A stretch of DNA of 64,000 nt from Thermodesulfobacteriota bacterium. GTDB taxonomy: Bacteria; Desulfobacterota; Desulfarculia; JACQYL01. The notes beneath the pieces are model-generated. The model saw nothing but the letters and a program-made list of their open reading frames with translations, did not search any database and had not been told where the DNA came from. The stretch's first letter is position 1. Every line of letters begins with the position of its first letter. The translations under genes and the position numbers were made by a program. Positions 23,460 to 49,237 of the stretch are shown in pieces. The DNA is taken from NCBI GenBank assembly GCA_963675595.2, contig CAXXLZ010000002.1, positions 3,808,001-3,872,000 of the forward strand, given 5' to 3'.

Positions 23460-24827
23460 TTATTCCGCGGTACTTGGCCTGGCAAGCGTGAGCAGGTTGG
23501 CCGAAACGATCGACGCCCACACGTAGCTCTGGAAGGAGCGCCACCCTTGCCAATTGCAGCGGTCCAACCCAAAACAGCGTTTGAGGCGGGATATTCCAGA
23601 CTCGATACCCGCTCGAAAATTCCTGAGACGTTGGTGCACATAGAGACTCCGGCACATGTCCGTCACCTTGATTCCGCGTCTTTTGGCAAAGCAGATGTCC
23701 TTGACACCAAGCTCTTTGGCCTTCTTCACATTGTCTTTGGAAGCAAAGCCGCCGTCCAGAGCCGCTTTGAGCGGAGGGCGACCCCAGATGTCTGCCTGGC
23801 GTTCAAGCATGGTTTGCGACAACTCGCTGTCCGCCGGATTGCCCTTGAGCACCACGCAATCGAGGATCAGGTTGGAACCCCCGCCGGTGAGGCAGATTTT
23901 ATGACCGAAATGCGTATCACGCCGATCTTTGATGATGATGTCCGTATGAGGTTCGAAGATGGAAACCAGTTTTTCGGATGCAGGAACGCTTTCCCCGTTG
24001 ATCACCCGCCTTCTTGCCTGGGAGATCACCTGACAGGACAGAGGCAGATAGTGTTGAATGTCATCAAAAATACGCGCCTGTTCCAGCAGTTCCTCCAAAG
24101 AGTCGGGCTTATACGCATCTATACAGGGCAGAGCCCTCTCGGCGTAGCCCGTCACTTTTTCCGCGACTTTGAGCAAATCCGCATAAAGCTTCTTGCGGGC
24201 CTTTTCTCTTTTGGCGTTCAGGATGCCCAGCATTCGGCGTTTGGCGCGGAGACTGTGGTCTTGAAAACACAACCCCTTGACTCCCAGTTCCCCGGCGGCG
24301 ATGAGAAGACGAGTGAGGACGCGGACAACATCCCACAGCAAAGTCGAATCCGTCGGGTGATGGATGTTGCTTTCCACCACGGTACAATCGATCCGGACTT
24401 CTCTTCCCGTCTCGACCTTATCGTCCTTGGCATGGCCTATAATGACCCGATTCACCTGCTCCCACGTCTCAGCGGACAGGGACTTGATGTTCTGCTGCAG
24501 GGCCGACTTCTTGAACCCTTTGCCGAATCCGATGCGGCAAAAGGCTCGCAAGCAATCGGAGTCTACTATATGAAAGGCCAACCGCCGGTACGAATACCCG
24601 AACAGAACCTTGACTATAGCCGCCCTCAAAACCTGCTCCGCGCTCATACCCCCGGCTCCGGTATTTTTCTTGTCAGGGGCACACGGGCAAAGGTCTTGAA
24701 AGACCATGTCATAGATGGCAGGATCCCGGTCAAGAATCCCGCTGATTGCCTCCAACTCCTTGGCTTGATCGAAATCTTTATGGAAAGGCGGCGACAGCGG
24801 CATCTGTTTTTGTCTTTTATCGCGCAT
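23460..24827 (-). CDS. ISNCY-type DDE transposase
   Basis: GMSAEQVLR, RIDCTVVESNIHHPTDS, ALDGGF, FRAGIESGISRLKR. Confidence 0.85.
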   Translation of the reverse strand: MRDKRQKQMPLSPPFHKDFDQAKELEAISGILDRDPAIYDMVFQDLCPCAPDKKNTGAGGMSAEQVLRAAIVKVLFGYSYRRLAFHIVDSDCLRAFCRIGFGKGFKKSALQQNIKSLSAETWEQVNRVIIGHAKDDKVETGREVRIDCTVVESNIHHPTDSTLLWDVVRVLTRLLIAAGELGVKGLCFQDHSLRAKRRMLGILNAKREKARKKLYADLLKVAEKVTGYAERALPCIDAYKPDSLEELLEQARIFDDIQHYLPLSCQVISQARRRVINGESVPASEKLVSIFEPHTDIIIKDRRDTHFGHKICLTGGGSNLILDCVVLKGNPADSELSQTMLERQADIWGRPPLKAALDGGFASKDNVKKAKELGVKDICFAKRRGIKVTDMCRSLYVHQRLRNFRAGIESGISRLKRCFGLDRCNWQGWRSFQSYVWASIVSANLLTLARPSTAE

Positions 24828-25179: not shown

Positions 25180-26505
25180 TTATCCGGGAGACAGCCGCGA
25201 ATGCACATCCACAAACGCCTCATAGGCAGGACAATGGCGACCCAGGCGCAGGATCAGCCGACGTCCCGTCCTGATGAATCGACCCGCAATCGTCATGAGC
25301 TCCTGAATGACGGTGCGGATGCGGCGGCGTTTGGCCGGATGCCGCACCGGAGAACGGTCGCCGAGCAGTCCAAACTGACCGATAATACGCAGGATATTGT
25401 AGACCATGCCTGCGCACGTCAACACCAGGGCGTTGGTGGCGAACTTGCCCGACGGCAGCCGTTCCATATCCAGATCGGTCTTGATTTCGCTGTGAAACTG
25501 CTCGCTCGTCCCATGCTTCTCGTACAACCGGATGATCCGTTCCTCGGGCAGAACCAGGTTGGTCCACCATCCTTCCAACGTAACCTCCGGCAGCAACAGC
25601 CGTTGCCCGTGCCGATCCACGGTGCGCTCCGTCACCCGCATCACCCGCATGAATCGCATCTTCTTCCCTTGGACCTCATACGTCTCATGCACCGTCATCA
25701 CGGCCACCTTCTTGCCCGGTCGCGGCACACTCACTTTGCCTTCGGCGAAGATTCGGTCCCGCCAAGCCAGAGGGTCCTCTTTCCGGGGATTCCACTTGAC
25801 CACGAAGAAGACCTTCCTGTGTTGACGGAGCGCCGCCAAGGTCTCCAACGCGCAGTGGGCGGCATCGAGGCGCACCAAAAGGCTTTTTCCCGTCAACTCC
25901 CGCGCCCGTCGAATCACCCGAGCCAAGAAGGGAAGAAATCCTTTCTGACTATGTTGGCTGCCTTCACGAAGCTCAAGACCGATGCACCAACCTTCTTCGC
26001 CAAGGTACGCCGCTATGGGCGCATACCCGTCATAGCCCTGGTAGGTTCGGGAAACCCCTTCTTTCTTGGTCTCCGAGTTGTCCATGGGAAACACGTCGAT
26101 ATCGAGAGGAACATGTCCCATAGATCCGGCGGTAACCGGCGCCTTCACCGCTTTGAGCATCTCGATGGAACTCCCGTTGACGAGTTCCTTAAGCACCGCA
26201 GCGTTCTTGTCCAAACGCTGCCGCAAGGTCTCTTTGGACGGCACCTTCCGGATATCCAACGCCGTTTTGAACCAATCATTGCTCCGCATCCCGGCCACCG
26301 CCTCGAAATCGCTTTTGCCGATGCAAAGCAATCCCAGGTAGCTCTTCAACACATCCGAATGAGACACGCTCGGCATGCCGGGTACGGCCAAATCCGCCTT
26401 CCGACACAACTCCGTGTGGTGGTTGATCAAGAGTCCAGCCAGGGACAGTCCGGAATGCGCCGTATAGAACTCGGTCTCCGACCTTTCGATGGTAATCTTC
26501 CGCAT
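25180..26505 (-). CDS. IS1380-family transposase (second copy)
   Basis: Translation identical to 21898-23223 (offset 3282 bp). Confidence 0.9.
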   Translation of the reverse strand: MRKITIERSETEFYTAHSGLSLAGLLINHHTELCRKADLAVPGMPSVSHSDVLKSYLGLLCIGKSDFEAVAGMRSNDWFKTALDIRKVPSKETLRQRLDKNAAVLKELVNGSSIEMLKAVKAPVTAGSMGHVPLDIDVFPMDNSETKKEGVSRTYQGYDGYAPIAAYLGEEGWCIGLELREGSQHSQKGFLPFLARVIRRARELTGKSLLVRLDAAHCALETLAALRQHRKVFFVVKWNPRKEDPLAWRDRIFAEGKVSVPRPGKKVAVMTVHETYEVQGKKMRFMRVMRVTERTVDRHGQRLLLPEVTLEGWWTNLVLPEERIIRLYEKHGTSEQFHSEIKTDLDMERLPSGKFATNALVLTCAGMVYNILRIIGQFGLLGDRSPVRHPAKRRRIRTVIQELMTIAGRFIRTGRRLILRLGRHCPAYEAFVDVHSRLSPG

Positions 26506-26630
26506 AGCCTTCACCTGTTGAGTGAATCGATAACAGGCAACACTATTACAGAAATAACTCATTTTATCAAATAGTTATGTGGGCAACCATGTTAACCTCA
26601 TAGTTTCCCATTCACGGATTCAGGTAATTC

Positions 26631-30712: not shown

Positions 30713-31351
30713 ATGAACATCAAAAAACTTATGACTCTGTGCTGCTTATTTGTTGCCGCTGTCTTTCCCGAAATGGCGGCAAAGCCTGCCTTCGCACTGG
30801 AGAAAACGCAGTATAACGTGATTGAAAAACAAGAAAACTTCGAATTGCGGGAATATCCTTCTTTTGTTGTTGCAGAAACCTATATGGAAGGCGATTTCGA
30901 GACAGTCGGTAATGGCGGGTTTCGACGTCTGGCCGCATACATCGGCGGTGAAAACGTCAAAAATCAATCCATCTCTATGACCTCGCCGGTTACGCAGGAA
31001 GCCCAGTCCGAGAAAATTGCCATGACCGCTCCGGTAACGCAAGAGAAGAAGGGCAATTTATGGCGGATCACTTTCATGATGCCTTCCAAATACACCATGG
31101 ATGGCTTGCCCCGCCCCAATGACGACCGAGTCAATTTGACGTTGGAACCGCCCAAATTGGTTGCGGCCGTTCGTTATTCCGGAACATGGGCGCGGGAGCG
31201 ATATGAGGAGAACGAGGCAAAACTCTTGAGTTGGATAAATGTCAACGGATGGAAAGTGACAGGCCAAGCAATTTGGGCCCGTTACGATCCACCTTTTATG
31301 CCGTGGTTTCTGAGAAGAAACGAGATAATGCTCCCTGTAGAAATAGAATAG
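30713..31351 (+). CDS. SOUL heme-binding family protein (exported)
   Basis: FELREYP, GFRRLAAYIGGEN, IAMTAPV, ARYDPPF..WFLRRNEI; signal peptide. Confidence 0.9.
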   Translation: MNIKKLMTLCCLFVAAVFPEMAAKPAFALEKTQYNVIEKQENFELREYPSFVVAETYMEGDFETVGNGGFRRLAAYIGGENVKNQSISMTSPVTQEAQSEKIAMTAPVTQEKKGNLWRITFMMPSKYTMDGLPRPNDDRVNLTLEPPKLVAAVRYSGTWARERYEENEAKLLSWINVNGWKVTGQAIWARYDPPFMPWFLRRNEIMLPVEIE

Positions 31352-36337: not shown

Positions 36338-36691
36338 TTATTGTTTTCCGTTTCCTGCAATGATAAATAATATTCCTACGATCATTGGAGCAAACATGGG
36401 TCCCGGTAACCCTTCTTTTCGGATTATCAACCCGATTATGGAGGCTGTCAGAATTGGAAATACCACAAGGTATCCTCCCAGCTTCTCATACTTCCATCCA
36501 ATAGCCAGTCCGATGAACATCAACGGAAAAGTTGTAAGCCAAATATTGTCAAGAAGGCTGTTATCAGGATTGGTAAAGGGAAGGGGATTGCCGTATCCGA
36601 AATAGAACGGCAACCCGAGCAATAAGATTGCCGAAGCCATAATTCTTGCAAGCCACCGGATGCCTGTTGTTTGTTTTTTGCTCAGTCTCAT
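36338..36691 (-). CDS. Small integral membrane protein
   Basis: About four hydrophobic segments, GLAIGWKYEKLGG; AT-richer than its surroundings. Confidence 0.7.
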   Translation of the reverse strand: MRLSKKQTTGIRWLARIMASAILLLGLPFYFGYGNPLPFTNPDNSLLDNIWLTTFPLMFIGLAIGWKYEKLGGYLVVFPILTASIIGLIIRKEGLPGPMFAPMIVGILFIIAGNGKQ

Positions 36692-37047: not shown

Positions 37048-40000
37048 CTACCTCTGCTTTCGCATCACGCCGGAAGCGAACAGGGCGATCATGGCAAGCA
37101 CCAGCAGGGACGCGAACCACTGGACGCCCGAGGAGGTCGGTTTGGAGGTGTCTTCTTCCGAGTTGATCTTTTCCATCTTGAATCCTTCCACCTGCTCCGC
37201 CTGGTCCCCTTTGACGGGTTTCGCTTCCGGCCTTTTTTCCACCGGATCGCCGGTTGTCTTCGAATCTTCCGCGCTCGCCTTCTTCCGAAGGCCGGCCAGG
37301 AGTTCCTGCTGGACCTTGACCCGCGTTTTCACTTGTTCGGACAGCTCCTTGCCCGCGGCCTTTTCCACGGCGAGTTTGAACTTCTCGAGGAACTCCGGTG
37401 ATACAAGCCCGGGAACGGACAGAAGGTTGACCACCATTTGATTCATCAGCGGATTGTTACAGGTGTGATCGCAGCACGCGACCCCCTTTTCCACCACGTT
37501 TCCGGCATATTCCAGAGCCAGCTTACGTTTGATCTCTTCCTTCGCCTTCCAATACTCGTGGCGTGTGGATTCGAGCATCCGCGCGGTCATGGACTGGTAG
37601 GCCCAGGGATTGACTTGATTGAAAAACTCCTTGAGATTCATGTCGTACTTGTCTTCTATGTAAACCTCATAGGTCTGTTGCCAGCGGGCCTCGTCCACGG
37701 AGGAAGACACGGTGACCTGCCAGCCCCACATGTTCTCCAGGAACTGAGACATCTCCCTCGCTCCCGCGTAATCTTCCTTTTTCATCCCCTCGATCCACTT
37801 GGGGTTGAGATACCGGGCCCGCAGTTCCTCCCCCACGGTGCGGGCGGCGTCCTCCACTACGACCTCGTCGGGGGTCCTCTGGAGGGTGATGAGGGTGTCG
37901 GGCGCTTCCCCCCGTTCCTTTTCCACGGCCAGGGAAAGCCCTCCGAGATATTGGAACAGGTCGTCGTTGTCCATGGTGCCGTATATGCCTGAAGAGATGG
38001 AATGAACCGCCACGTCCACTCCCTTCAGGTTTCGGCGGAACAGGTCCTCCGCTTTCACTCCCCAGGAACCCGACCCGAAAGCGAAGCCCACCCGGTTTCT
38101 GTACACCGCGGCGATTTCATCATTACTCGTCCACGTGCCCGATGCGCCCGACATCTCGGAGACTCCGGTGCCGTAGCCGCCGGGAGCTTCGGAGAATATG
38201 CGGATTTGGGAAAGTCGTTGTGCTTCTTCCTCGGTCAGGCCTTGGGCGACGAGTTGTTCTTTTATGGAATCCGAATTTCTGCGCAGCAGGTTTTCGATGT
38301 CGGTCTGAACCAGGGCTTTCCGAATGGCTTCGTCGAGGAACAGCACCAATTGGGGGAACAAATCCCGATAGAGTCCCGAAGGATTGACAACCACGTCGAT
38401 GCGCGGGCGCTTGAGCTCGCGCCCGGGGATGACTTCGATTCCGGTGACCCGGCCCACTCGGCTCCAGATGGGGCGAAGTCCCAGAAGATGCAGGATGGTG
38501 CTTTCGTTGATTCCCTCGTTTCGGATGGTCTCCGTGGCGAAAAGTACGACGGCGGCCTTTTCCGGGTAACGCCCCTTTTTGAGGAGACTGCTCGAGATGA
38601 TGTCTTCAGCCGCTTGACGCCCCAATTCGTAGGCCGCCTGAGAAGGAATTTTCGCCGGATCGAAGCCGAAGAAGTTCTTTCCCGTGGGCACGGCTTCGGG
38701 GTTGCGTACCGGGTCGTTGCCCTCGCCGGGGGGGATGTATCCGCCTTCCAGGGCGTGGAGGAGTCTTTGGATTTCAAGGGGACCGGAGTCTTCGAGTCGT
38801 TTTCGCACTTCCGCCGACTTGGATTCCGGGTTGCTTTCGATGATGCTTTTCGTGGTTTCTTCGAGAGCCTCCCCTTCGGGAGAGCGGCCGAACGTGTGCA
38901 GACCGTAGGGCATGGAGTCCGATTGAAGCTTGCCCAAGTAATGCTCCACCGTTGTGAGAAGCTCTACGGTGTTCTCGTCGGATAGGGAAATCCCCACGTC
39001 CCGATCGAGACCGAGTCGTCCGATCAGGCGTTTGATTTCCCGCAGTTCCGCTTCGGAAGTAGACGCTCCTTGCGCCTCAAGCCGATTGAAGCGCCCGATC
39101 ATCTCATAGAGATTCGCATATTCGCCGTACAGCCCGGCTTTCTTCAACGCCGGCGTAAGATGGTCGATGATTACGCCCCGACCCCTGCGCTTGGCTTGAA
39201 TGCCTTCCCCCACGTCGTCCACGATGTAGGGGTAGATGTTGGGGATGTCCGTGATCAGCACTTCGGGGGGGCAATCGGTCGTGAGGCCGGCCTGCTTGCC
39301 GGGCAACCACTCGTGGGTGGCGTGGGTGCCGAGATGGATCATGGCATCGGCGTGAAATGCATGTTTGAGCCAAAGATAGGCCGCAATGTACTGGTGGTGG
39401 GGGTAGAGCGTCGAGGAGTGGTAGAGCTTCATGGGATCGTCTTCCCAGCCTCGGGCGGGTTCCGGAAGAATGACCACGTTGCCCAGGTCCACCATGGGAA
39501 GGATCAGGTCGCCGTCCGCCTTCATGATTTCCGACGATTCCGGAGTTCCCCACTGGGCTTCCACGCGAGATCGGAAAGCGGCCGGAAGCGCCGCATACCA
39601 TTCTCTATAGGTTTTCACCGGCAGACGAACCACCTTGCCGGTCTGCAGCATTTCCTCCAGTTCGCCGGGAGCCCAGCTTCCGATGTTTCTGCCGTATTTA
39701 AGCACCAACTCGCGGATCGTTTCGCGGGTCAGGTCTCGTCGTTCCCGGAAACGGTAACTTCGGGCGTTCATGGAAGCCAGAATGACCTCGAGGCTGCCGA
39801 AGACATTGAGGTAGCTGGCGCCGATGTTCTGTTTTCCCCGGCTGTGGTTGTAGTAGATGACGGCCACCCGCTTGTCCGTGTTGGGCTTCTTGCGGAGCGC
39901 CACCCACTTGTTCAGGCGGGGGAGCAGCAAGGCAAGATTGTCTTCCACCAAGCGATGGACGAAAAAATACCTGCCGGTATCGGGGTCTTTTACCTTGACC

Positions 40001-40995
40001 TTACCGCCCAGAACCGACGGCTCGATCAGTCCCGATACTTCGGGGTTGGTCATGGTCCAAACCACCTCGGTCGGCTCAATCCCCATAGGGGAGTTTCGCC
40101 ATTCATCGAGTGTTCCCAGGTATAACTGCACCGCGCTGATCACCGGTACGTCCAGTCCGCGCAGGGCGGTCAACAGCGAAGGCTCGAGGGCCGAGTGGAA
40201 CTTGAGGCTGAAAGCGAGCAGGATATCCACTCTGGGGCGTTCTTTTGCATCGAGCATGATCTCCTCGATGACCGGAATATCCTTCCCGTAGGCGGCCAGC
40301 ACGTTCCAACCCCCGGCTTCAAGCTTTTCCACCAGCGACCGGACCCGGTGGGACTGCCCCTCCACCAGGGAGGACGAGTACAACATCACTCCTATCCACG
40401 GGCGTGTCGCGGAGTAACCGGGTCGTGTTTCATACCAACGGAGATAGCTCGGGAAGTCTTTGAAAGGTTCCTTTGCGGCGGGATGATACACGCCGGTTTC
40501 CGGTAGTTCCTTCACCGGACCGTACTCCATGCTCGGATCGAACTCCGCATGAATTACCCGTCGAATCATGTTTTGGACGTTCTCGAGAGAGAGATGATCG
40601 AAATAGGCTTTGACGTTCGTGTCGAACAGAAAGCCCCGGGCTTTTAGACGATCGTCGTCCCCCGAAGTTCGCAGGGCATAGACGCGCTTTTCCGAAATGG
40701 GGACGTTTTCGAGAAGATAGTCCGTTAGTTCGGAAATCATTACGTCCACCACCACGACTTTGGATTCCGAGACCTGTTGCGAGGCGGAAGGATCGTTCAG
40801 AAGGTCTTCCGGCGAGAGGACACGGACCTCGGGCTTCGTGAGGCTCAGTTCCCGAACCGCCTTGTGGGCGAGAAACAGGTCCGACTCGGACACCAGGAGT
40901 GCCAGGTCCGCCGCACAGGAAGAGCGGACGGGCGTCCCGGCCGCGAAACACAGGCACAGGGCTCCGATCATGAGTACAAAGGAGGTGCGTCGCAT
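37048..40995 (-). CDS. CobN/Mg-chelatase H-family protein with signal peptide and C-terminal TM anchor
   Basis: HLGTHATHEWLPGK, PNIYPYIVDDVGEGIQAKRRG, RPRIDVV, NPKWIEGM, CCDHTC; hydrophobic N- and C-termini. Confidence 0.9.
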   Translation of the reverse strand: MRRTSFVLMIGALCLCFAAGTPVRSSCAADLALLVSESDLFLAHKAVRELSLTKPEVRVLSPEDLLNDPSASQQVSESKVVVVDVMISELTDYLLENVPISEKRVYALRTSGDDDRLKARGFLFDTNVKAYFDHLSLENVQNMIRRVIHAEFDPSMEYGPVKELPETGVYHPAAKEPFKDFPSYLRWYETRPGYSATRPWIGVMLYSSSLVEGQSHRVRSLVEKLEAGGWNVLAAYGKDIPVIEEIMLDAKERPRVDILLAFSLKFHSALEPSLLTALRGLDVPVISAVQLYLGTLDEWRNSPMGIEPTEVVWTMTNPEVSGLIEPSVLGGKVKVKDPDTGRYFFVHRLVEDNLALLLPRLNKWVALRKKPNTDKRVAVIYYNHSRGKQNIGASYLNVFGSLEVILASMNARSYRFRERRDLTRETIRELVLKYGRNIGSWAPGELEEMLQTGKVVRLPVKTYREWYAALPAAFRSRVEAQWGTPESSEIMKADGDLILPMVDLGNVVILPEPARGWEDDPMKLYHSSTLYPHHQYIAAYLWLKHAFHADAMIHLGTHATHEWLPGKQAGLTTDCPPEVLITDIPNIYPYIVDDVGEGIQAKRRGRGVIIDHLTPALKKAGLYGEYANLYEMIGRFNRLEAQGASTSEAELREIKRLIGRLGLDRDVGISLSDENTVELLTTVEHYLGKLQSDSMPYGLHTFGRSPEGEALEETTKSIIESNPESKSAEVRKRLEDSGPLEIQRLLHALEGGYIPPGEGNDPVRNPEAVPTGKNFFGFDPAKIPSQAAYELGRQAAEDIISSSLLKKGRYPEKAAVVLFATETIRNEGINESTILHLLGLRPIWSRVGRVTGIEVIPGRELKRPRIDVVVNPSGLYRDLFPQLVLFLDEAIRKALVQTDIENLLRRNSDSIKEQLVAQGLTEEEAQRLSQIRIFSEAPGGYGTGVSEMSGASGTWTSNDEIAAVYRNRVGFAFGSGSWGVKAEDLFRRNLKGVDVAVHSISSGIYGTMDNDDLFQYLGGLSLAVEKERGEAPDTLITLQRTPDEVVVEDAARTVGEELRARYLNPKWIEGMKKEDYAGAREMSQFLENMWGWQVTVSSSVDEARWQQTYEVYIEDKYDMNLKEFFNQVNPWAYQSMTARMLESTRHEYWKAKEEIKRKLALEYAGNVVEKGVACCDHTCNNPLMNQMVVNLLSVPGLVSPEFLEKFKLAVEKAAGKELSEQVKTRVKVQQELLAGLRKKASAEDSKTTGDPVEKRPEAKPVKGDQAEQVEGFKMEKINSEEDTSKPTSSGVQWFASLLVLAMIALFASGVMRKQR

Positions 40996-41030
40996 GGTTT
41001 GCTTTCCCGGATCGACTCTTTAGACCGCGT

Positions 41031-43061
41031 TCAGGGACGATCGGGACCCGAGGCGTCGATTCCGTTGAGCAATCCGTTGATCGCGATGCCCAGCACGGGC
41101 GGAATCTTGGTGGAGGTTATGAGTTGATGCCAGTCGTCGATTTTTTCTCCGGAGATTTCTTCCGCCACGCTGTGGCTCCATAGTTCGAAAGCTCCCAAGT
41201 CCACGGCAAGTCCCCGCTCGCGGGCGTCGCTGATTGCCAATGCGGACTCCACAAATGCGGCGTACCTGGGATGGAGCAGAATTTCCTGGAGCTTTGCCAG
41301 GCGCGGCAGAGGATCGACTTCGGCGGCACAAGTAGTGGGCGAAAGAAGGCCGTAAAGGTCGATGTGCCTTTCCTGAATTCTTTGAAACACGTTTCGTGAG
41401 GCGAATAGGCCGTTTTGACGTCCAACGGCCTCGGTGACCGCTTCATAAACGGCTTTGGCGATGAGTTCGCCGAGTTTGCTGTGGCCGCCCGTATTGTCCA
41501 CCGGAACGCCTCGGCCTTCGACCACCAGGACCTCGTCGGTGCCCGTTCCCGTAGCTTGCCATTGAGCGGGATTGTAGGTGCTGCGAATGTCCATATCCTG
41601 GAGTGCCGCGGTCTTGGCCTCCGTGACGGTGATGACGGCTCGCGTCATGGCCCTGGGAGAAAGCTTCAGGTTGGTGAGAACGAGTATGTTGATGGTGCCG
41701 GGCTCATAGAAAAGCCCTTCGTCCATGGACGTGCGCACCGCGTTGGATTGAACTCCGGCGGTGGCGAGGACGTAGACGGTCATGTCCTTGTAAGCGGCCT
41801 TGCGGACCGAGAGGTTCTTCATGTCCGCCCCGGTGAACAGAAGAGAGGTGTCCTCGGGTGATCTTCCGAGGTTCTTGAAGACTTCATCCTTCCAGGAATC
41901 GAAACCGAGACGATGGCTGATGCTCCAGGCGGGAGGGGGGTAGGAATGGTTTCCCGCATACGTGATCCCCTCGCGCGCCCCTTCAAGGGTGGACACCACA
42001 CGCATGGGTTCGGTGAATTCGATCAACAGGGTCTTGGAAACGAAATCAAACATTCTCGCGTGCTCCACGCGAGCGGAACGAACATAAGGGAGAGGTATGT
42101 CCAAAGGCCTTTCTTCCAGCTTTCGCTCTTCCAGTACGAGCTCGGATTTCGATGCGAAATCCTCATCATAAACGACGGAAGCGAGCCACGCGGCGAACTT
42201 GCCCACATTTACCGAGGCCCGACAGGTCAGTTCGCAAGGGAAGTAGTACACATTTCCGGTACGCACGGCTTCCACGTCCTTCCACCCGGGGAGCCTGGAG
42301 ATCATCTCCTCGACCGCTCTATCGCCCCCGCAGCCGTAAACAACCTGAGGGTCGAATTGTTTCCATTCCTCATAGGTCATTTCAGTGATGTTGCCGTTCC
42401 TTCCGAGTTGCGGGGGAATTCCTCCGGCGGCGCGAATGAGATCGTTTTGAAAGGAATCGTCACCTGGAGTCATGACGCGTTCCCGGCCCATCAGACGCAT
42501 GACCCTTTTTCTCCTGTCCTTGGGGATTTTTGCGACTTTCTTCGAGACCAAGTCCAGTTCGCCCCGGATGTTGCCACAGAGCGTTTCCGCCTCCGATTCC
42601 TTCGAAAACATTCGGCCCAGAAGCTGCAGTTGGTCGAAGACATTGGAGAGGTCCCGGGGGTCCAGTTGGATCATGACGACGTTTCGGTTTGCGAAGTGCT
42701 CCCTCACTCGGGAATGAAGCGAGGACAGGAAGATCACGTCCGGGTCCGCCGCTTCGATGGCGGAAATGGAAGGGCCGAAGAACCCGCCCACGAACCGCAC
42801 CGGGCAATTCCCCACGAGGCGGGCGTCATGGAAGGTTGCTCCGCAAACGGCATCGGCGGCGCCCAGGGCGAAAATCATTTCGGTGATGGTGGGAACCAGC
42901 GAGACCACTCGAGTCGGTGGTGCCGACAGGGAGATTAGATTGCCGCGGGAATCGACGAATTCGATGCTCGATCCCAAAACGGTATGGACGGTTCCGACCT
43001 GACAGATCAAAAAGACGATCAGGAATAGACAGGGGACGAGGGTTTTCGAGAGTCTCTTCAT
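41031..43061 (-). CDS. Fusion of BtuF-type substrate-binding domain and adenosylcobinamide amidohydrolase (CbiZ)
   Basis: RVVSLVPTITEMIFALG, EAVRTGNVY; CbiZ GTINI, AVITVTEAKTAAL, ATGTGTD; signal peptide; start after GGAGG. Confidence 0.82.
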   Translation of the reverse strand: MKRLSKTLVPCLFLIVFLICQVGTVHTVLGSSIEFVDSRGNLISLSAPPTRVVSLVPTITEMIFALGAADAVCGATFHDARLVGNCPVRFVGGFFGPSISAIEAADPDVIFLSSLHSRVREHFANRNVVMIQLDPRDLSNVFDQLQLLGRMFSKESEAETLCGNIRGELDLVSKKVAKIPKDRRKRVMRLMGRERVMTPGDDSFQNDLIRAAGGIPPQLGRNGNITEMTYEEWKQFDPQVVYGCGGDRAVEEMISRLPGWKDVEAVRTGNVYYFPCELTCRASVNVGKFAAWLASVVYDEDFASKSELVLEERKLEERPLDIPLPYVRSARVEHARMFDFVSKTLLIEFTEPMRVVSTLEGAREGITYAGNHSYPPPAWSISHRLGFDSWKDEVFKNLGRSPEDTSLLFTGADMKNLSVRKAAYKDMTVYVLATAGVQSNAVRTSMDEGLFYEPGTINILVLTNLKLSPRAMTRAVITVTEAKTAALQDMDIRSTYNPAQWQATGTGTDEVLVVEGRGVPVDNTGGHSKLGELIAKAVYEAVTEAVGRQNGLFASRNVFQRIQERHIDLYGLLSPTTCAAEVDPLPRLAKLQEILLHPRYAAFVESALAISDARERGLAVDLGAFELWSHSVAEEISGEKIDDWHQLITSTKIPPVLGIAINGLLNGIDASGPDRP

Positions 43062-43190
43062 AGGGAGGCCTCCTGCACAACGATTGGAAATGATATAGAT
43101 ATTCTTCACGGATTCCGTTCGAACGGTATACCGAGACGGATGTGAAACGCAACGGGGGAACCGCACGCGGGGGGAAGGTGTGCGTCTTTT

Positions 43191-43541
43191 CTATCTGCTT
43201 TCTTCCGGAACGTATACCATACTGCCGTCTTCGAGCCGGTACGCGGTTCCAAGCCTTTCTCCCCGTCCTTCCGCTTGGGTCCGCGTGACCTTTACCGCAT
43301 CCAGTTTCTTGCCCTTTTTGGTGATGATTTCCAGCTCCCCTTGGGCGTTTTGCTTCATGAGCGTGAATTCGGATTTTTCGGACAACAGGTCGGTCAGGCG
43401 GTACGCGCTGAAAAGCATGACCAGAATGCCCACGATGAACACGAGGCCCAGATCGAAAAGGTTCGCCACGCCGCTCATGGGGTCATTGTCTTCTAAATCA
43501 TACTCGCGCAGGTTTCGTTTCCGGGGCGCCATTGGATGCAC
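43191..43541 (-). CDS. DUF2149-family single-TM protein
   Basis: DPMSGVANLFDLGLVF...GERLGTAYRLEDGSMVYVP. Confidence 0.85.
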   Translation of the reverse strand: MHPMAPRKRNLREYDLEDNDPMSGVANLFDLGLVFIVGILVMLFSAYRLTDLLSEKSEFTLMKQNAQGELEIITKKGKKLDAVKVTRTQAEGRGERLGTAYRLEDGSMVYVPEESR

Positions 43542-44139
43542 TCTCTTCCGCGGTTGTGGCTGATACCATGAACTCCATGGTCCCGATGTCCTTCTGAATC
43601 CATCTCTTTTTGAGCGTAAAGAAAAGATACGCGCAGAGCCCCTGGGCCAGTCCCACCACCGTGGTGGTAAACGCGATGACGAGGTCCGAAGAGAGCCGAG
43701 TGACGTCTCCCTGGGCCAGAGCCGCCAAACCGGTCCCCATGGGGATCAGGGTTCCCATGAGCCCGAGTCCCGGTCCGATGCGGATCATCATCTTGATTCC
43801 GTCCAAGGTCTTCCAAAGTCCGTCGGCGGCTTCCTGAAACGTCAACTCAATGAGTGATTCCCGAAGGGCGCCCGGCTGTTCTCTGAGTGAATTCAGCCTT
43901 CGAGCAAAATCGACGACGTAATGGGAGTGACGCTTCTCGGCGTGCCCCGTCTCGGCCATGTGTATCAGGTCTTGCGGAGTGCAGGGTTTGAGCCGGGTCC
44001 GCTCGATCCATTCCGAGAATACCGATCCGCCCCGGTAAAGAATCCATAAGGTCAGGAGGGACAGGAGAATCAGGACGGGATAGAGAAGCGACTGGGCGAT
44101 GAGGTAGATGAACGAGCTCAGCAACGCGCCTATTTGCAT
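43498..44139 (-). CDS. MotA/TolQ/ExbB proton-channel family protein
   Basis: RIGPGLGLMGTLIPMGTGLAAL..GD...LVIAFTTTVVG; probable start MQIG. Confidence 0.88.
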   Translation of the reverse strand: MQIGALLSSFIYLIAQSLLYPVLILLSLLTLWILYRGGSVFSEWIERTRLKPCTPQDLIHMAETGHAEKRHSHYVVDFARRLNSLREQPGALRESLIELTFQEAADGLWKTLDGIKMMIRIGPGLGLMGTLIPMGTGLAALAQGDVTRLSSDLVIAFTTTVVGLAQGLCAYLFFTLKKRWIQKDIGTMEFMVSATTAEESASNGAPETKPARV

Positions 44140-44141
44140 GC

Positions 44142-44885
44142 TTATGATCTCCCCATCCGGAAGCGTTTGATAATCCCTCCTGATACGAAGAATACCGCCG
44201 CCAGGGAAGCGGCGAGAGCGGGTTTGGCGACGGATTGCGTTTCCGGGTTCCCATAGCGGACGGCGAGGCGATAGACGCGGTCCAGGTTTTGATAATGGGG
44301 CATTACACAGGCCGTGACGAGGAAATAGGCCGAAGCGATCAGCATGGCTGTTCCAAGGACGGATGCCGGTCGAACACCCGTAATTCGGGACCATAGTGTC
44401 AAGGTGGCGGAGGAAAGGAGGCTGAGTCCCAGAAAGGCCGCGTATGAGATAGCCAACACTCGGACGGATGCCTCGGGAAAATAGGAAAGCAGAAAAGAAA
44501 TCGACACAAATAGGACGATGAGGCACATGGGACACGGCAAAGCCAAACCGAGCCATGCATGGCTGTGTTCTCCGGAGCGCGAATCGCCCTTCAACAAGTA
44601 GATGCCCCAGACCGTCAGTCCGACGGCGATGATGATGTGGATCAGGTGGCCGGAGCGGAGAAAGAGCGTGAACGTCTCGAAATGCCTCATGAGGTTCCAT
44701 TCCTTCAGCACGACCCCGGATCCGGCAAAAAGGATCAAGTAGGTCAGCGCATACAAAGAAGTTACCACGGTCTTGCGAGCAAAGCCCGACTCGCGCTGGA
44801 GTCTGTAAAAGAGCCCGGCCCCTCCTTTGACGGCGAACACGCCAAAGGAAAACAGTAGACCAAGAAAGATGCTTTCGAGTTCCAT
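44142..44885 (-). CDS. DUF2162-like multi-TM putative transporter
   Basis: LGLLFSFGVFAVKGGAGL, LALPCPMC; several TM segments; start MELES. Confidence 0.75.
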   Translation of the reverse strand: MELESIFLGLLFSFGVFAVKGGAGLFYRLQRESGFARKTVVTSLYALTYLILFAGSGVVLKEWNLMRHFETFTLFLRSGHLIHIIIAVGLTVWGIYLLKGDSRSGEHSHAWLGLALPCPMCLIVLFVSISFLLSYFPEASVRVLAISYAAFLGLSLLSSATLTLWSRITGVRPASVLGTAMLIASAYFLVTACVMPHYQNLDRVYRLAVRYGNPETQSVAKPALAASLAAVFFVSGGIIKRFRMGRS

Positions 44886-44923
44886 GTCTTGTTCTCTTTC
44901 CCCTACCAAGAGGAACAATACTT

Positions 44924-46799
44924 GATGCCGTCGTAAGAACCCCCCTTTACGAACAGGGCTGTTTTTTGGAGCATTGGAAGTTCAAGCGGCCATTGCAACA
45001 CTGCCAAGGTTACTGTCATCGTGACATAGGCTACAAAGACGACGGAAATTATCGTTGCTGCCTCCCTCTATCGAGTTGGAAAGGGCCTTCTTGGCCTTAT
45101 CAAGGCGGCTCTGGACGAACCTCTTGATGTTGATGGCCAGGGCCTTCATGAAAACAGATAAGGTGACCCGTTTTTTGCCTCGGGTCCACGATCGTTTCAA
45201 TCCCGTGACCCGATCCGCTTCGGAGATGGTGGCCTCGATGCCGGACCGGATTTTGTAGCGTTCTTTGAAATCATGGCTTTCCTGCTGTAGTCTGCGCTTG
45301 GAGGTCGCCATGTCCTTGCGCTTGTACTTCAGTCGATAATTTCCGCCCTTGATCCGTTTTACCGGACAGATGGGGAGAAATTCGCATAGGAGACAGTGCT
45401 CGCGGGAAAACACGGCTTCCACCGCTTTGCCGCGGTCAACGATCTTGCATTCAAGTGGCGCGTGCCCCCGGATACAGTAAACGACCTGGGTGCAGTCCTC
45501 GTTCGTTTCAAAGTCACTCAACTGCATCTTATTGAGATCCGGCGCTTTTCCGCAAGTCACCGGAGCGGTAAGCTCGACTCCGTGCTCGTGAGCTTGAAGG
45601 ATGTTCTCGCCGCTGCCGTAGCCTGCGTCGGCGAACAACTCTTCGGGTTTGCGGCCCGTTTCCTCCAGGCGTTCGATAACGGGCATCACGTCTTTCTGGT
45701 CGCTGTCATAGGAAGGGGCCACGTCCACATCGGTGATCACCTGGAAGGGATTTTCCTTCACGCAGGTCTCCGTGAGGGAAGCCTTATATCCTTTGCCCTT
45801 GCGCCCATAGGTGGCGTCGGGATCCGAAGGATTCTGCAGGGAGTCCGCAGGGATTTCCTTGGGCTTCTCGAGTTCTGTTTTGTCGGGATCTCCCTCGGTG
45901 AAACGGCATTGCTCCGACAGTAGTCGGGCCATCAGCCGGTATTCTTTCATTCGGCTGATTTCCGGATGACCTCGGAAGCGGTCCACCAGGTCGGCGAGAT
46001 GGCGGGCGGACTTGTCCAGACGACGCTTGGCCCGCGATGATTTTGCATCGGCAAAATAGCCTGCGCGCTTCAAGTAGGCCTTGTCGTAAAGTCGGGGCAG
46101 TTTCTCATACAACTTGGGATGTTTCTTATGGAGCCGTTTCAAGAACGCCTCGATGGTGCGCGTAAAGAGCCCCAGACGGCTCAGATGAGCCATGTTGGAA
46201 GTGATCTGTGTGGAGTCCAACCGCTGTTTGTCCGTGCTAAGGGCCGCCGTCTCGATGATGGCGTCCGTGATTCCGGTAAAGAGGCTCCGCGCTTGCTTGT
46301 TGTCGGTAATCAAGGTCCGGAAATTGTGCAGGGTCTTCTGGCAGACGTGAGATTCAAAGGCGTTGATGTTGAAGGCATATTGCCAACGCAGATCGAAGTC
46401 CAGAGCGCCCAAGACTTCCGCATCGGTCAGGCTGTTCATTTCCTTCAAAACACACGCTCCGACAAGGATGGCCACGGGTCTGTTGGGCCTGCCGTTGTCC
46501 TCACAGTAGAAAGGCCGGAAAGACTCCTCATCGATCATGGGAAGCACCAGGCGCCGGAACGGACCGGCCCACGTCTTCTCCAACGCCTCGATCCTGTCTG
46601 CGGGAAGGCAAATATCGTGGTCGAAAATGGTCTTTTGCGTTCTCTTAGGCCGAAACAAAACAACCCCCCTAAGGACCATATTATTAATCAAGTCAGATAC
46701 TTATCATACAGGACCCAAAAGAAAGGTCAACCCATAAATGCCATTTTTATTCATATTTTCAACTAGATACCTTTACGGAGAGGTTTTTACGAACTCATC
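44924..46799 (-). mobile_element. IS1182-like element, copy 1 (1876 bp)
   Basis: IRs GATGCCGTCGTAAGAACC / GGTTTTTACGAACTCATC; flanked by AATACTT. Confidence 0.88.
44982..46691 (-). CDS. DDE transposase (IS1182-like)
   Basis: GRPNRP, QRLDST, SLQNPSDPDATY, ADAGY, RSGIEATISE; Cys-rich insert; true start may be TTG at 46658. Confidence 0.85.
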   Translation of the reverse strand: MINNMVLRGVVLFRPKRTQKTIFDHDICLPADRIEALEKTWAGPFRRLVLPMIDEESFRPFYCEDNGRPNRPVAILVGACVLKEMNSLTDAEVLGALDFDLRWQYAFNINAFESHVCQKTLHNFRTLITDNKQARSLFTGITDAIIETAALSTDKQRLDSTQITSNMAHLSRLGLFTRTIEAFLKRLHKKHPKLYEKLPRLYDKAYLKRAGYFADAKSSRAKRRLDKSARHLADLVDRFRGHPEISRMKEYRLMARLLSEQCRFTEGDPDKTELEKPKEIPADSLQNPSDPDATYGRKGKGYKASLTETCVKENPFQVITDVDVAPSYDSDQKDVMPVIERLEETGRKPEELFADAGYGSGENILQAHEHGVELTAPVTCGKAPDLNKMQLSDFETNEDCTQVVYCIRGHAPLECKIVDRGKAVEAVFSREHCLLCEFLPICPVKRIKGGNYRLKYKRKDMATSKRRLQQESHDFKERYKIRSGIEATISEADRVTGLKRSWTRGKKRVTLSVFMKALAINIKRFVQSRLDKAKKALSNSIEGGSNDNFRRLCSLCHDDSNLGSVAMAA

Positions 46800-46806
46800 A
46801 ATACTT

Positions 46807-48682
46807 GATGCCGTCGTAAGAACCCCCCTTTACGAACAGGGCTGTTTTTTGGAGCATTGGAAGTTCAAGCGGCCATTGCAACACTGCCAAGGTTACTGTC
46901 ATCGTGACATAGGCTACAAAGACGACGGAAATTATCGTTGCTGCCTCCCTCTATCGAGTTGGAAAGGGCCTTCTTGGCCTTATCAAGGCGGCTCTGGACG
47001 AACCTCTTGATGTTGATGGCCAGGGCCTTCATGAAAACAGATAAGGTGACCCGTTTTTTGCCTCGGGTCCACGATCGTTTCAATCCCGTGACCCGATCCG
47101 CTTCGGAGATGGTGGCCTCGATGCCGGACCGGATTTTGTAGCGTTCTTTGAAATCATGGCTTTCCTGCTGTAGTCTGCGCTTGGAGGTCGCCATGTCCTT
47201 GCGCTTGTACTTCAGTCGATAATTTCCGCCCTTGATCCGTTTTACCGGACAGATGGGGAGAAATTCGCATAGGAGACAGTGCTCGCGGGAAAACACGGCT
47301 TCCACCGCTTTGCCGCGGTCAACGATCTTGCATTCAAGTGGCGCGTGCCCCCGGATACAGTAAACGACCTGGGTGCAGTCCTCGTTCGTTTCAAAGTCAC
47401 TCAACTGCATCTTATTGAGATCCGGCGCTTTTCCGCAAGTCACCGGAGCGGTAAGCTCGACTCCGTGCTCGTGAGCTTGAAGGATGTTCTCGCCGCTGCC
47501 GTAGCCTGCGTCGGCGAACAACTCTTCGGGTTTGCGGCCCGTTTCCTCCAGGCGTTCGATAACGGGCATCACGTCTTTCTGGTCGCTGTCATAGGAAGGG
47601 GCCACGTCCACATCGGTGATCACCTGGAAGGGATTTTCCTTCACGCAGGTCTCCGTGAGGGAAGCCTTATATCCTTTGCCCTTGCGCCCATAGGTGGCGT
47701 CGGGATCCGAAGGATTCTGCAGGGAGTCCGCAGGGATTTCCTTGGGCTTCTCGAGTTCTGTTTTGTCGGGATCTCCCTCGGTGAAACGGCATTGCTCCGA
47801 CAGTAGTCGGGCCATCAGCCGGTATTCTTTCATTCGGCTGATTTCCGGATGACCTCGGAAGCGGTCCACCAGGTCGGCGAGATGGCGGGCGGACTTGTCC
47901 AGACGACGCTTGGCCCGCGATGATTTTGCATCGGCAAAATAGCCTGCGCGCTTCAAGTAGGCCTTGTCGTAAAGTCGGGGCAGTTTCTCATACAACTTGG
48001 GATGTTTCTTATGGAGCCGTTTCAAGAACGCCTCGATGGTGCGCGTAAAGAGCCCCAGACGGCTCAGATGAGCCATGTTGGAAGTGATCTGTGTGGAGTC
48101 CAACCGCTGTTTGTCCGTGCTAAGGGCCGCCGTCTCGATGATGGCGTCCGTGATTCCGGTAAAGAGGCTCCGCGCTTGCTTGTTGTCGGTAATCAAGGTC
48201 CGGAAATTGTGCAGGGTCTTCTGGCAGACGTGAGATTCAAAGGCGTTGATGTTGAAGGCATATTGCCAACGCAGATCGAAGTCCAGAGCGCCCAAGACTT
48301 CCGCATCGGTCAGGCTGTTCATTTCCTTCAAAACACACGCTCCGACAAGGATGGCCACGGGTCTGTTGGGCCTGCCGTTGTCCTCACAGTAGAAAGGCCG
48401 GAAAGACTCCTCATCGATCATGGGAAGCACCAGGCGCCGGAACGGACCGGCCCACGTCTTCTCCAACGCCTCGATCCTGTCTGCGGGAAGGCAAATATCG
48501 TGGTCGAAAATGGTCTTTTGCGTTCTCTTAGGCCGAAACAAAACAACCCCCCTAAGGACCATATTATTAATCAAGTCAGATACTTATCATACAGGACCCA
48601 AAAGAAAGGTCAACCCATAAATGCCATTTTTATTCATATTTTCAACTAGATACCTTTACGGAGAGGTTTTTACGAACTCATC
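46807..48682 (-). mobile_element. IS1182-like element, copy 2 (tandem)
   Basis: Same sequence offset by 1883 bp; AATACTT at 46800-46806 and 48683-48689. Confidence 0.88.
46865..48574 (-). CDS. DDE transposase (IS1182-like), second copy
   Basis: Translation identical to 44982-46691. Confidence 0.85.
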   Translation of the reverse strand: MINNMVLRGVVLFRPKRTQKTIFDHDICLPADRIEALEKTWAGPFRRLVLPMIDEESFRPFYCEDNGRPNRPVAILVGACVLKEMNSLTDAEVLGALDFDLRWQYAFNINAFESHVCQKTLHNFRTLITDNKQARSLFTGITDAIIETAALSTDKQRLDSTQITSNMAHLSRLGLFTRTIEAFLKRLHKKHPKLYEKLPRLYDKAYLKRAGYFADAKSSRAKRRLDKSARHLADLVDRFRGHPEISRMKEYRLMARLLSEQCRFTEGDPDKTELEKPKEIPADSLQNPSDPDATYGRKGKGYKASLTETCVKENPFQVITDVDVAPSYDSDQKDVMPVIERLEETGRKPEELFADAGYGSGENILQAHEHGVELTAPVTCGKAPDLNKMQLSDFETNEDCTQVVYCIRGHAPLECKIVDRGKAVEAVFSREHCLLCEFLPICPVKRIKGGNYRLKYKRKDMATSKRRLQQESHDFKERYKIRSGIEATISEADRVTGLKRSWTRGKKRVTLSVFMKALAINIKRFVQSRLDKAKKALSNSIEGGSNDNFRRLCSLCHDDSNLGSVAMAA

Positions 48683-48937
48683 AATACTTAATTAAAAAAG
48701 AAAACCGCGCCGTATGTTATGTGAGTATATGAAGTGATCAGTTACTTGTATCGGCCATTATACTACCTAATCAAATAGGATTGAGGTAGTTATGGGGCGA
48801 AGGCGATATCGTCATCCGGTTTGTTTGTCACGGAACATATCGATGGATAGAATTTGTCCGGATGACGGCCAACGCAACAGCATGTCGTATGGAATTAGAT
48901 ATGTGTTAACTGATAGAATCCACAGCGAAAACCTATT

Positions 48938-48952
48938 TGTCAATTATTATCA
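48938..48952 (-). promoter_or_regulatory. Fur-box-like site overlapping a TTGACA -35 oriented towards the CobN operon
   Basis: Minus strand TGATAATAATTGACA versus the 7-1-7 consensus TGATAATnATTATCA; GATTCT 17 bp downstream. Confidence 0.35.
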
Positions 48953-49237
48953 TACTCCCTTAAATATTTTGTTTGGACTACCGGTTTGCTTGGGAACTTA
49001 TGGAAATAAGGCAACAAGATACGAGGTACTAATACATGGGAGGAGTATGGACCATGCAAGGGTAGGGGTATCGCGCCGGTCTTCATCGGCGTGATAAACT
49101 CTGATCCGTGTGTTCGGAGCACTGAACGGTTCTTGACGTAGAGGAGGCCGTATGAGGTGGATGCGCCGGGAGGCGCTTAAAGAAGTCTCCTCGTGGCGAC
49201 GGTTGGGCCCGGGGTGGAATCTCGTATCCGGGTGGCT

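Follow-up and report, generated by a model that had tools for sequence, protein, structure and literature searches.

A predicted periplasmic CobN-like protein encoded with a MotA-like/DUF2149 pair and a BtuF-CbiZ fusion: a putative corrinoid-processing module in a Thermodesulfobacteriota bacterium

What does a CobN-like protein do when it is predicted to face the periplasm and is encoded beside a proton-channel subunit and a corrinoid-trimming enzyme? Until HmuS was found to run the reverse reaction in the periplasm, class I chelatases had been regarded as enzymes of the cytoplasm that insert metals at the expense of ATP. The question is raised here by a five-gene operon at positions 37048-44885 of a 64,000-nucleotide (nt) stretch of DNA from a Thermodesulfobacteriota bacterium (assembly GCA_963675595.2, contig CAXXLZ010000002.1, positions 3,808,001 to 3,872,000), which is called the window below. 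An earlier note on this DNA had seen in the operon an exported chelatase with an ExbB-like motor, tied to corrinoid salvage, and had held it to be a poorly described system. Judging from the sequence comparisons reported here, we consider with moderate confidence that the operon encodes a module of the BtuS/Hmu type which processes corrinoids in the periplasm without ATP, and that it represents a reduced, lineage-specific form of an envelope module that is widespread.

The operon and its CobN-like protein

The operon consists of five intact, tightly spaced open reading frames (ORFs), all located on the minus strand. In the order of transcription they encode a DUF2162 polytopic membrane protein, a candidate permease, of 247 amino acids (aa) (44142-44885; Pfam PF09930, 2.7e-34); a MotA/ExbB/TolQ-type proton-channel subunit of 213 aa (43498-44139; PF01618, 1.2e-10, 41.7 bits against a cut-off of 22.9); a DUF2149 protein of 116 aa with one membrane helix and a small periplasmic domain (43191-43541; PF09919, 2.2e-31); a 676-aa fusion of a BtuF-like Peripla_BP_2 domain to a CbiZ domain of the adenosylcobinamide amidohydrolase family (41031-43061; PF01497, 7.4e-19, and PF01955, 2.6e-55); and a CobN-like (BtuS/HmuS-like) protein of 1315 aa (37048-40995; PF02514, 1048 bits). 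All five family assignments are well above the Pfam cut-offs, and the ORF calls and Pfam recovered the five co-oriented genes of the earlier note at exactly these coordinates. The gene set is more than a chance neighbourhood, as it recurs beside CobN-like genes in 53 of 67 related loci.

Topology was predicted by Kyte-Doolittle hydropathy. The CobN-like protein has a signal-like N-terminal segment at residues 5-23 and a C-terminal helix at residues 1293-1311, in agreement with the signal peptide and C-terminal membrane segment proposed earlier. Both hydrophobic ends are kept in 56 of the 60 CobN-family rows compared; the four exceptions are two cytoplasmic paralogues from the same genome and two cut ORFs. 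By this prediction, the protein is exported and stays anchored in the inner membrane through its conserved C-terminal tail and helix. Two islands in the tail, EG(Y/F/L)(K/E)ME and SSGVQW (residues 1268-1293, about 37120-37195), lie just outside the membrane helix and match the catalytic core in conservation (0.67 and 0.62, with 0.71-0.77 in the core), while the linker before the islands scores 0.36. They could serve a membrane partner as its docking site.

All nine NCBIfam CobN/BchH equivalog models scored below cut-off with the CobN-like protein, the best reaching 982 against 1619 bits. Over the whole length, the protein matched the PDB chains of ChlH with 462 bits, of HmuS with 462 and of CobN with 435; its C-terminal quarter matched HmuS clearly better (63 vs 33 bits). 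A C-terminal Cys-x4-Cys-x-N stretch is common to the window protein and HmuS and lies past the end of the ChlH and CobN alignments; both of its Cys residues are invariant in 58 of 58 exported homologues. The superfamily motif HFG(T/A)HG reads HLGTHA in the window, and its His-558 is invariant in all 58 exported homologues and in both paralogues, while an extra His-561 (GTHxTHEW) is invariant in the exported clade. In a FastTree tree of 60 proteins, from which authentic HmuS, BtuS1/2, archaeal CobN-like, CobN and ChlH sequences were left out, the window protein falls in a nine-row clade (support 100) apart from the cytoplasmic paralogues (support 100), on a long branch (0.55 vs a median of 0.14). 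The fusion gene precedes the CobN-like gene in eight of the nine rows, the window included (seven of eight relatives).

These comparisons make the BtuS class, which was reportedly named by Rodionov et al. 2003, the nearest name for the window protein. BtuS proteins are described as predicted periplasmic, membrane-anchored proteins that are found in btu-type clusters and proposed to serve in metalloporphyrin salvage, and the tested members, BtuS1 and BtuS2 of B. fragilis, are tied there to heme-iron (Rocha et al., PMC6460266). Like them, the window protein is CobN-related and distinct from CobN and ChlH; the btuB-type, B12-regulated cluster is seen in its relatives, whereas the window copy has neither the B12 element nor the receptor. 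With the large subunits of CobNST and ChlHID it shares the family PF02514 and the invariant active-site His, but it differs from them in its predicted export and anchoring, its scores below the equivalog cut-offs, its separate branch and the lack of an AAA+ neighbour.

The last point was followed through the window and the genome. Of the 82 window ORFs with 150 aa or more, the Pfam scan covered 41, the non-overlapped ones, and gave no match to ChlI/ChlD, CobS/T, a TonB-dependent receptor or a FecCD permease; no HmuY appeared in this general scan of the window ORFs either. Whole-genome family searches placed all matches to PF00593, PF01032, PF01078 and TIGR02030 outside C2:3808001-3872000, that is, outside the window. 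The earlier note had seen no cobS/cobT, chlI/chlD, TonB receptor or ABC permease in the window, and these searches agree with it. The genome as a whole (6.79 Mb, 3 contigs) holds three CobN-family genes, two of them outside the window in a separate B12 cluster at C2:3276001-3312000 (G000; L096 and L097). Both of these paralogues lack hydrophobic ends by hydropathy, and ChlD-/ChlI-like genes lie directly upstream of the first, about 540 kb from the gene of the window protein. The absence of an AAA+ partner thus stands for the neighbourhood of the operon but not for the genome, where ChlI/ChlD sit beside cytoplasmic CobN paralogues. Since an AAA+-linked cytoplasmic chelatase set is present elsewhere, the CobN-like protein of the window is something else.

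The B12 cluster also contains three RF00174 cobalamin riboswitches, a cytoplasmic CbiZ, BtuF-, BtuC- and BtuD-like genes, a radical SAM gene and a TonB-dependent receptor. The cluster represents a CobN system linked to AAA+ subunits, and the organism possesses the anaerobic CbiK route as well. CbiC, CbiD, CobQ and CbiK are all present in the genome; therefore, the organism probably makes cobamides and needs cobalt.

The corrinoid link in the fusion protein and in related loci

The CbiZ domain of the fusion is full-length (PF01955, 187.8 bits, profile positions 1-191 of 191). The fusion protein has an N-terminal hydrophobic segment by hydropathy, a signal peptide is found in seven of seven homologous fusions with a complete N-terminus, and both domains are present in all 120 best database relatives; the fusion is thus predicted to be exported. 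CbiZ and BtuFCD are known from cobinamide salvage and cobamide remodelling in archaea and in Rhodobacter sphaeroides (cited in PMC8620254). The window resembles that system in the linkage of CbiZ with a BtuF-type binder, and in the genome another CbiZ, cytoplasmic and under riboswitches, is located next to BtuFCD-like genes. It differs in that the CbiZ of the operon is fused to the binder and exported; its site of action would be the periplasm, and it would depend neither on ATP nor on prior adenosylation. The passages of PMC8620254 that deal with CbiZ do not describe an exported BtuF-CbiZ fusion. A PDB search matched no solved CbiZ structure. An apparent DUF2149-BtuF-CbiZ fusion in locus L027 proved to arise artificially from masked letters.

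A scan of species-representative genomes yielded 67 related loci, mostly from Desulfobacterota and anammox Planctomycetota, with 37-61% identity. Features were counted on the CobN strand. A MotA-like gene, a DUF2149 gene or both are present in 53 of the 67 loci; the sequence of the remaining 14 is short or ends on the side where these genes would lie, so that the MotA/DUF2149 pair pointed out in the earlier note is a constant companion of the CobN-like gene. DUF2162, usual beside the CobN-like gene in Desulfobacterota, was found in 31 loci, CbiK in 18, the BtuF-CbiZ fusion in 10 and TonB in 6. A TonB-dependent receptor is encoded in the operon at 43 of the 67 loci, so the missing receptor, correctly noted for the window, is not a trait of the family. 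In the loci checked, Pfam confirmed receptors, TonB, CbiK, corrinoid adenosyltransferases and cobamide-biosynthesis neighbours.

Rfam searches revealed RF00174 cobalamin riboswitches in 11 of 13 loci. A custom covariance model was built from 16 of the Rfam matches; it picked out 81 sites, spread over 45 of the 67 loci, and had no match in the window. In 43 loci the riboswitch lies upstream of the cluster on the same strand. Three loci (L021, L061 and L076) have 2.9 kb or more of upstream DNA in which no riboswitch was detected, and in the remaining loci the sequence ends too near the cluster for a judgement. Three layouts are usual. In the first, a riboswitch is followed by the receptor, the CobN-like gene, in some cases DUF2162, and the MotA-like and DUF2149 genes; in the second, by DUF2162, MotA-like, DUF2149, receptor and CobN-like genes; and in the third, by receptor, DUF2162, MotA-like, DUF2149, BtuF-CbiZ and CobN-like genes. 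By sequence, the family is tied to the corrinoid/cobalt economy rather than to heme and is part of the predicted B12 regulon in Desulfobacterota and anammox bacteria. The tie to corrinoids that the earlier note had proposed is therefore upheld by the CbiZ domain on an exported binder and by the cobalamin riboswitches before 43 related operons.

Several loci have peculiarities of their own. CbiK-family chelatases with a signal peptide and an AHGEKK-type stretch are encoded beside the operon in L035, L038, L039, L041, L055, L058 and L059; there the class II chelatase would also be periplasmic, while other loci have a cytoplasmic CbiK. Locus L024, from a Thermodesulfobacteriota metagenome-assembled genome, holds two complete BtuF-CbiZ and CobN-like pairs in tandem around one DUF2162/MotA-like/DUF2149 set, and a riboswitch-led cobamide lower-ligand and biosynthesis operon comes next. 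For P0057 and L055:9776-15133, database and ORF calls join a CobN-like protein and a TonB-dependent receptor in one frame, which probably reflects read-through or a missed stop and not a genuine fusion.

Membrane partners, proposed function and alternatives

The MotA-like protein has conserved GPxLGLxGTxIPM and AFTTTVVGL helices across 18 homologues. In the DUF2149 protein, the Asp of the single membrane helix, which the earlier note had picked out, is D30; it lies within the predicted helix 21-53 and is invariant in 16 of 16 sequences. DUF2149 is given as the family of HmuV as well (PMC10434189, PMC11681262). The pair resembles ExbB-ExbD-TonB, TolQ-TolR and MotA-MotB in combining a PF01618 subunit with a single-pass partner that carries an invariant membrane-helix Asp; it differs from them in that the partner has no detectable ExbD homology and that the window holds no TonB. 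In the comparison with the four ordinary ExbD proteins of the genome, DUF2149 showed no profile similarity (hhalign probability 0.9%; best blastp E-value 0.01). The model of DUF2149 has a predicted local distance difference test score (pLDDT) of 67 overall and is confident for the helix only, the periplasmic part having a pLDDT of 50-69. A search for longer, fused DUF2149-containing proteins gave two matches, neither of them informative, and a protein atlas search returned DUF2149 clusters only.

The genome-wide search found the sole copies of both DUF2149 and DUF2162 in the window. DUF2162 has several hydrophobic segments by hydropathy, and its AlphaFold2 model is all-helical (pLDDT 82.8). 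Its PCPMC sequence is the PCPxC motif of the earlier note, and the motif is conserved across 19 aligned homologues, P117 and C121 being invariant and C118 nearly so; the other invariant residues of the alignment are K20, H83, M181 and Y187. The invariant His and the PCPxC motif within the predicted helices suggest a soft-metal site. No meaningful match was found for the fold: the best Foldseek E-value was 0.29, and the best VIA Z was 8.3, to half-bundles of the major facilitator superfamily, a value below the meaningful level for helical bundles. DUF2162 is not mentioned in the literature matches listed, and it was not detected in the control genome of B. thetaiotaomicron. The control archaeon Methanosarcina acetivorans gave matches for CobN, DUF2149 and DUF2162 and none for receptors or ExbD.

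If the operon works as a corrinoid-processing module, a corrinoid in the periplasm, having entered the cell through a receptor encoded elsewhere, would be caught by the BtuF-like domain, and the fused CbiZ would cut off its aminopropanol/nucleotide loop. The trimmed corrinoid would then pass to the central cavity of the CobN-like protein (His-558, His-561 and Asp-1009/1011/1012), which would act without ATP, as HmuS does on heme, and would either release the cobalt or hand the ring to the membrane. The product, in all likelihood the metal ion, would cross the inner membrane through DUF2162, and the MotA-like/DUF2149 pair would use the proton gradient for a conformational step transmitted via the conserved tail of the CobN-like protein. 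Both the proton-motive drive and the removal of cobalt are steps that we infer. In its most specific form, the proposal is a periplasmic cobalt de-chelatase assisted by the proton-motive force, in which CbiZ trims foreign corrinoids, the His/Asp cavity extracts the cobalt, the stator drives the process and DUF2162 imports Co2+; this we put forward tentatively, as a possibility rather than an expectation. Equally tentative is the idea that the MotA-like/DUF2149 stator thereby stands in for the AAA+ proteins, ChlI/D or CobS/T, of the cytoplasmic systems.

A number of points weigh against a corrinoid-processing module of this kind. We know of no enzyme that removes cobalt from a corrin. The characterised CbiZ enzymes are known to act on adenosylated substrates in the cytoplasm. 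Because the window has no native riboswitch or receptor, the corrinoid link here rests on the CbiZ domain and on the relatives. The ligand models are equivocal: the binding domain and the relatives' receptors score about equally with heme-type and B12-type models, all below cut-off. The best NCBIfam match of the binding domain is IsdE (46.1 against a cut-off of 298.65), BtuF NF002894 reaches 33.7 against 234, the PDB matches of the domain are a mix of iron, siderophore and B12 binders, and the receptor of L021 scores 207 bits with the TonB-hemin model and 186 with the TonB-B12 model. On the side of the membrane proteins, DUF2149 has no sequence-profile relation to ExbD and its modelled periplasmic domain is of low confidence, and for DUF2162 no fold match was informative and most anammox loci lack the gene. 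As a receptor is encoded in so many of the relatives' operons, the MotA/DUF2149 pair could serve the receptor instead of the chelatase. Among 30 searched relatives, DUF2149 was found in just four, and in none of the four from the same family or order; with so patchy a distribution, the operon is dispensable. Lastly, soluble HmuS without its anchors is reported to turn over heme (PMC12583661), which means that a motor is not strictly needed for the chemistry.

One alternative keeps the corrinoid and drops the removal of the metal. The operon would then encode a proton-driven inner-membrane corrinoid importer, in which the CobN-like protein merely receives or unloads the trimmed corrinoid and DUF2162, powered by MotA/DUF2149, takes over from BtuCD in bringing it into the cytoplasm. 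The lack of an ABC permease in the operon and in the window fits such an importer, as does the lack of a known precedent for cobalt removal from corrins; moreover, related operons contain or adjoin corrinoid adenosyltransferase genes (CobA/BtuR and PduO-type), which would fit the entry of an intact ring into the cell. We nevertheless judge it unlikely, since the CobN-like protein retains the superfamily's catalytic His and a high density of invariant residues in the cavity, which speak for chemistry rather than mere binding. DUF2162, with its 247 aa, is small, its PCPxC/His signature is of the soft-metal type, and most anammox loci do without it; BtuFCD-like genes are already present in the B12 cluster of the genome.

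A second alternative concerns the stator-like pair. With their membrane-helix Asp, MotA-like/DUF2149 could be a dedicated energiser of the ExbB/ExbD type for the TonB-dependent receptor, uncoupled from the CobN-like protein and left over in the window. The frequency of the receptor in the relatives' operons (43 of 67, with TonB at 6) is in line with this, and a figure legend in PMC12583661 draws HmuU/HmuV as energisers of HmuR. The distribution of the pair makes such a role quite unlikely. It stays with the CobN-like gene in receptor-less operons, namely in the window and in L019, L028, L037, L047, L061 and L076; L041 has a canonical TonB-ExbB-ExbD set in addition to it; the genome of the window holds four ordinary ExbD genes at other sites; and M. 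acetivorans has DUF2149 with no match for a receptor or ExbD. Together with the conserved tail islands of the CobN-like protein, these cases speak for a role of the pair with the CobN-like protein and not with a receptor. The lack of profile similarity between DUF2149 and ExbD, and the sign of continuing selection on the operon genes described below, count against this alternative too. The persistence in the window of the whole membrane trio (DUF2162, MotA-like and DUF2149) without a TonB-dependent receptor likewise argues that the trio serves the CobN-like protein.

The third alternative is a heme-iron de-chelatase like HmuS, with the BtuF-like domain binding heme, the CobN-like protein stripping its iron, and DUF2162 or another carrier importing the iron. 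HmuS of B. thetaiotaomicron (PDB 9d26) is described as a membrane-bound, periplasm-facing heme de-chelatase with N- and C-terminal helices that is independent of ATP in vitro (PMC12583661). It is the sole characterised exported CobN-like enzyme, scores as high with the window protein as ChlH does, and shares its C-terminal Cys motif and its topology. IsdE as the best match of the binding domain, the slightly better scores of the relatives' receptors with the TonB-hemin model, the window's lack of a B12 riboswitch and a SOUL heme-binding gene 6 kb away can be counted on the same side. The residues tell otherwise. In HmuS, His-1209 and Glu-1212 of the motif LSLDHxxEFMGG are reported as strictly conserved (PMC12583661). 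At this site the window reads MDNDDLFQYLGG, with Asp-1012 at the position of His-1209 and Gln-1015 at that of Glu-1212; the Asp is found in 57 of 58 rows and is part of an invariant DNDD motif. The Met-rich insertion of HmuS (about 120 residues) is missing, residues 691-890 of HmuS having no counterpart in the HMMER alignment, in which the query runs from 712 to 700, and the sole match to the Met-rich stretch scored -3.7 bits. The picture is mixed at His-254, a head/neck heme ligand of HmuS: the window has His-267 at this position in the HMMER alignment, and the column is Ser in 45 and His in 3 of 58 homologues. In addition, a full-length CbiZ is fused to the binder, cobalamin riboswitches lead 43 related operons, HmuY is missing, and all heme-type models score far below cut-off. 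We therefore find heme as the substrate very doubtful.

The receptor-less form in the window and its place among known systems

The region upstream of the operon has been altered by a pair of insertion sequences (ISs) of the IS1182 family, which the earlier note had overlooked. Copy 1 (44916-46798, minus strand; transposase 44982-46691) has Pfam and NCBIfam transposase matches and is an exact tandem repeat of the identical copy 2 (46799-48689, minus strand; transposase 46865-48574). The pair is arranged head-to-tail with a period of 1883 nt, and the 8-nt CAATACTT is shared at each junction. The insertion lies 31-39 nt upstream of the DUF2162 start codon and has displaced the native upstream intergenic region (48690-49237, minus strand). 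Contigs of the runs X3 and X4, from two other studies, lack the IS pair, and their sequence runs via 44923 directly into this post-IS region; the insertion is thus recent and simple. A 400-nt IS probe found 20 exact copies in the genome, so that the element looks recently active. One IS copy is located at the edge of the separate B12 cluster, adjoining a BtuF-like gene (L097:1-1588).

We considered whether a riboswitch and a receptor had been lost through the IS pair, and this is ruled out, because the X3 and X4 contigs show a simple insertion into a region that never held either. The native upstream region has no cobalamin riboswitch by Rfam (none at E <= 1) or by the custom model run with filters off (best 6.1 bits), and both searches were likewise negative for the window. 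Elsewhere in the genome there is no close orthologue of the operon-type receptor, the best match being 24-32% identical; the genome has 10 TonB-dependent receptor matches. This lineage therefore carries a receptor-less, riboswitch-less form of the module. A promoter and terminator scan gave matches no more numerous than in shuffled sequence. As the two IS copies cut the operon off from its own upstream region, its expression in this genome is uncertain, and the possibility that the insertion has silenced it is a further point against a working module here. Among the 40 strain differences shown (out of 361), 27 of the 33 coding ones fall at third codon positions, a bias that indicates purifying selection on the operon genes. 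That the operon is a silenced or decaying remnant, severed from its promoter by IS DNA that begins just before the first start codon and devoid of the relatives' receptor and riboswitch, is the least probable of the alternatives: the long branch of the CobN-like protein and the absence of the operon from 26 of 30 searched relatives are compatible with decay, but all five ORFs are intact, the invariant residues are kept, the IS-free arrangement in two other studies marks the insertion as recent, and the transposase genes are co-directional with the operon, so that read-through is possible.

Insertion sequences are unusually frequent in the window. Identical DDE_Tnp_1_4 transposase matches were obtained for two 460-aa ORFs, at 21898-23280 and 25180-26562, which flank a third transposase at 23460-24827; another transposase is found at 18003-19733. 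Nearer to the operon, a small DUF7670 membrane protein is encoded on the same strand (36338-36691, minus), 356 nt downstream of the CobN-like stop codon. The SOUL heme-binding gene (PF04832, 1.5e-46) lies at 30713-31351 on the plus strand, about 6 kb from the operon, with a two-component system between them and no link shown.

Among known systems, the closest in design is hmuYRSTUV. In the order described for Bacteroidetes, hmuSTUV encodes a CobN-like protein, a hypothetical membrane protein, a MotA/ExbB-type protein and a DUF2149 protein, and follows HmuY and the receptor (PMC10434189, PMC11681262); the roles of HmuT, HmuU and HmuV are stated as unknown in PMC12094164 and PMC13227078. The operon shares with this system a CobN-like protein that is exported, carries a membrane helix at either end and lacks an AAA+ partner, an adjacent MotA/ExbB-type protein (HmuU) and DUF2149 protein (HmuV), and a polytopic membrane protein at the position of HmuT. 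The relatives also share the order of receptor, CobN-like gene and membrane trio, and the HmuS catalytic His-538 and the Cys-x4-Cys are kept. It differs in that the window has a BtuF-CbiZ fusion instead of HmuY and a receptor, that the relatives stand under cobalamin riboswitches and not under iron control, and that the CobN-like protein lacks the Met-rich insertion, has Asp and Gln for His-1209 and Glu-1212 and bears the extra invariant His-561. By sequence, then, the window protein is of the HmuS type by design and falls outside the HmuS family in the strict sense.

Given this homology to hmuRSTUV and to the BtuS class, as described in PMC12583661 and PMC6460266, the system can no longer be called poorly described. 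The picture drawn in the earlier note was right in outline, its novelty was overstated, and a lineage-specific loss was read as a trait of the family. What is new is the receptor-less, riboswitch-less and IS-interrupted state of the operon, the IS-free contigs, and the residue comparison with HmuS.

The B12-linked branch to which the operon belongs is widespread in sulfate reducers and anammox bacteria, and it combines the same membrane partners as the heme system with a different cavity and a fused corrinoid-trimming enzyme. It is thus a second, independent system in which the purpose of the proton-channel pair can be asked, and the window, a receptor-less, riboswitch-less variant that keeps the membrane trio, is a natural test case. 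If corrinoids do lose their cobalt here, both the reaction and this way of obtaining cobalt in sulfidic environments would be new, and cobamide-producing anaerobes would be able to mine cobalt from the cofactors of other organisms.

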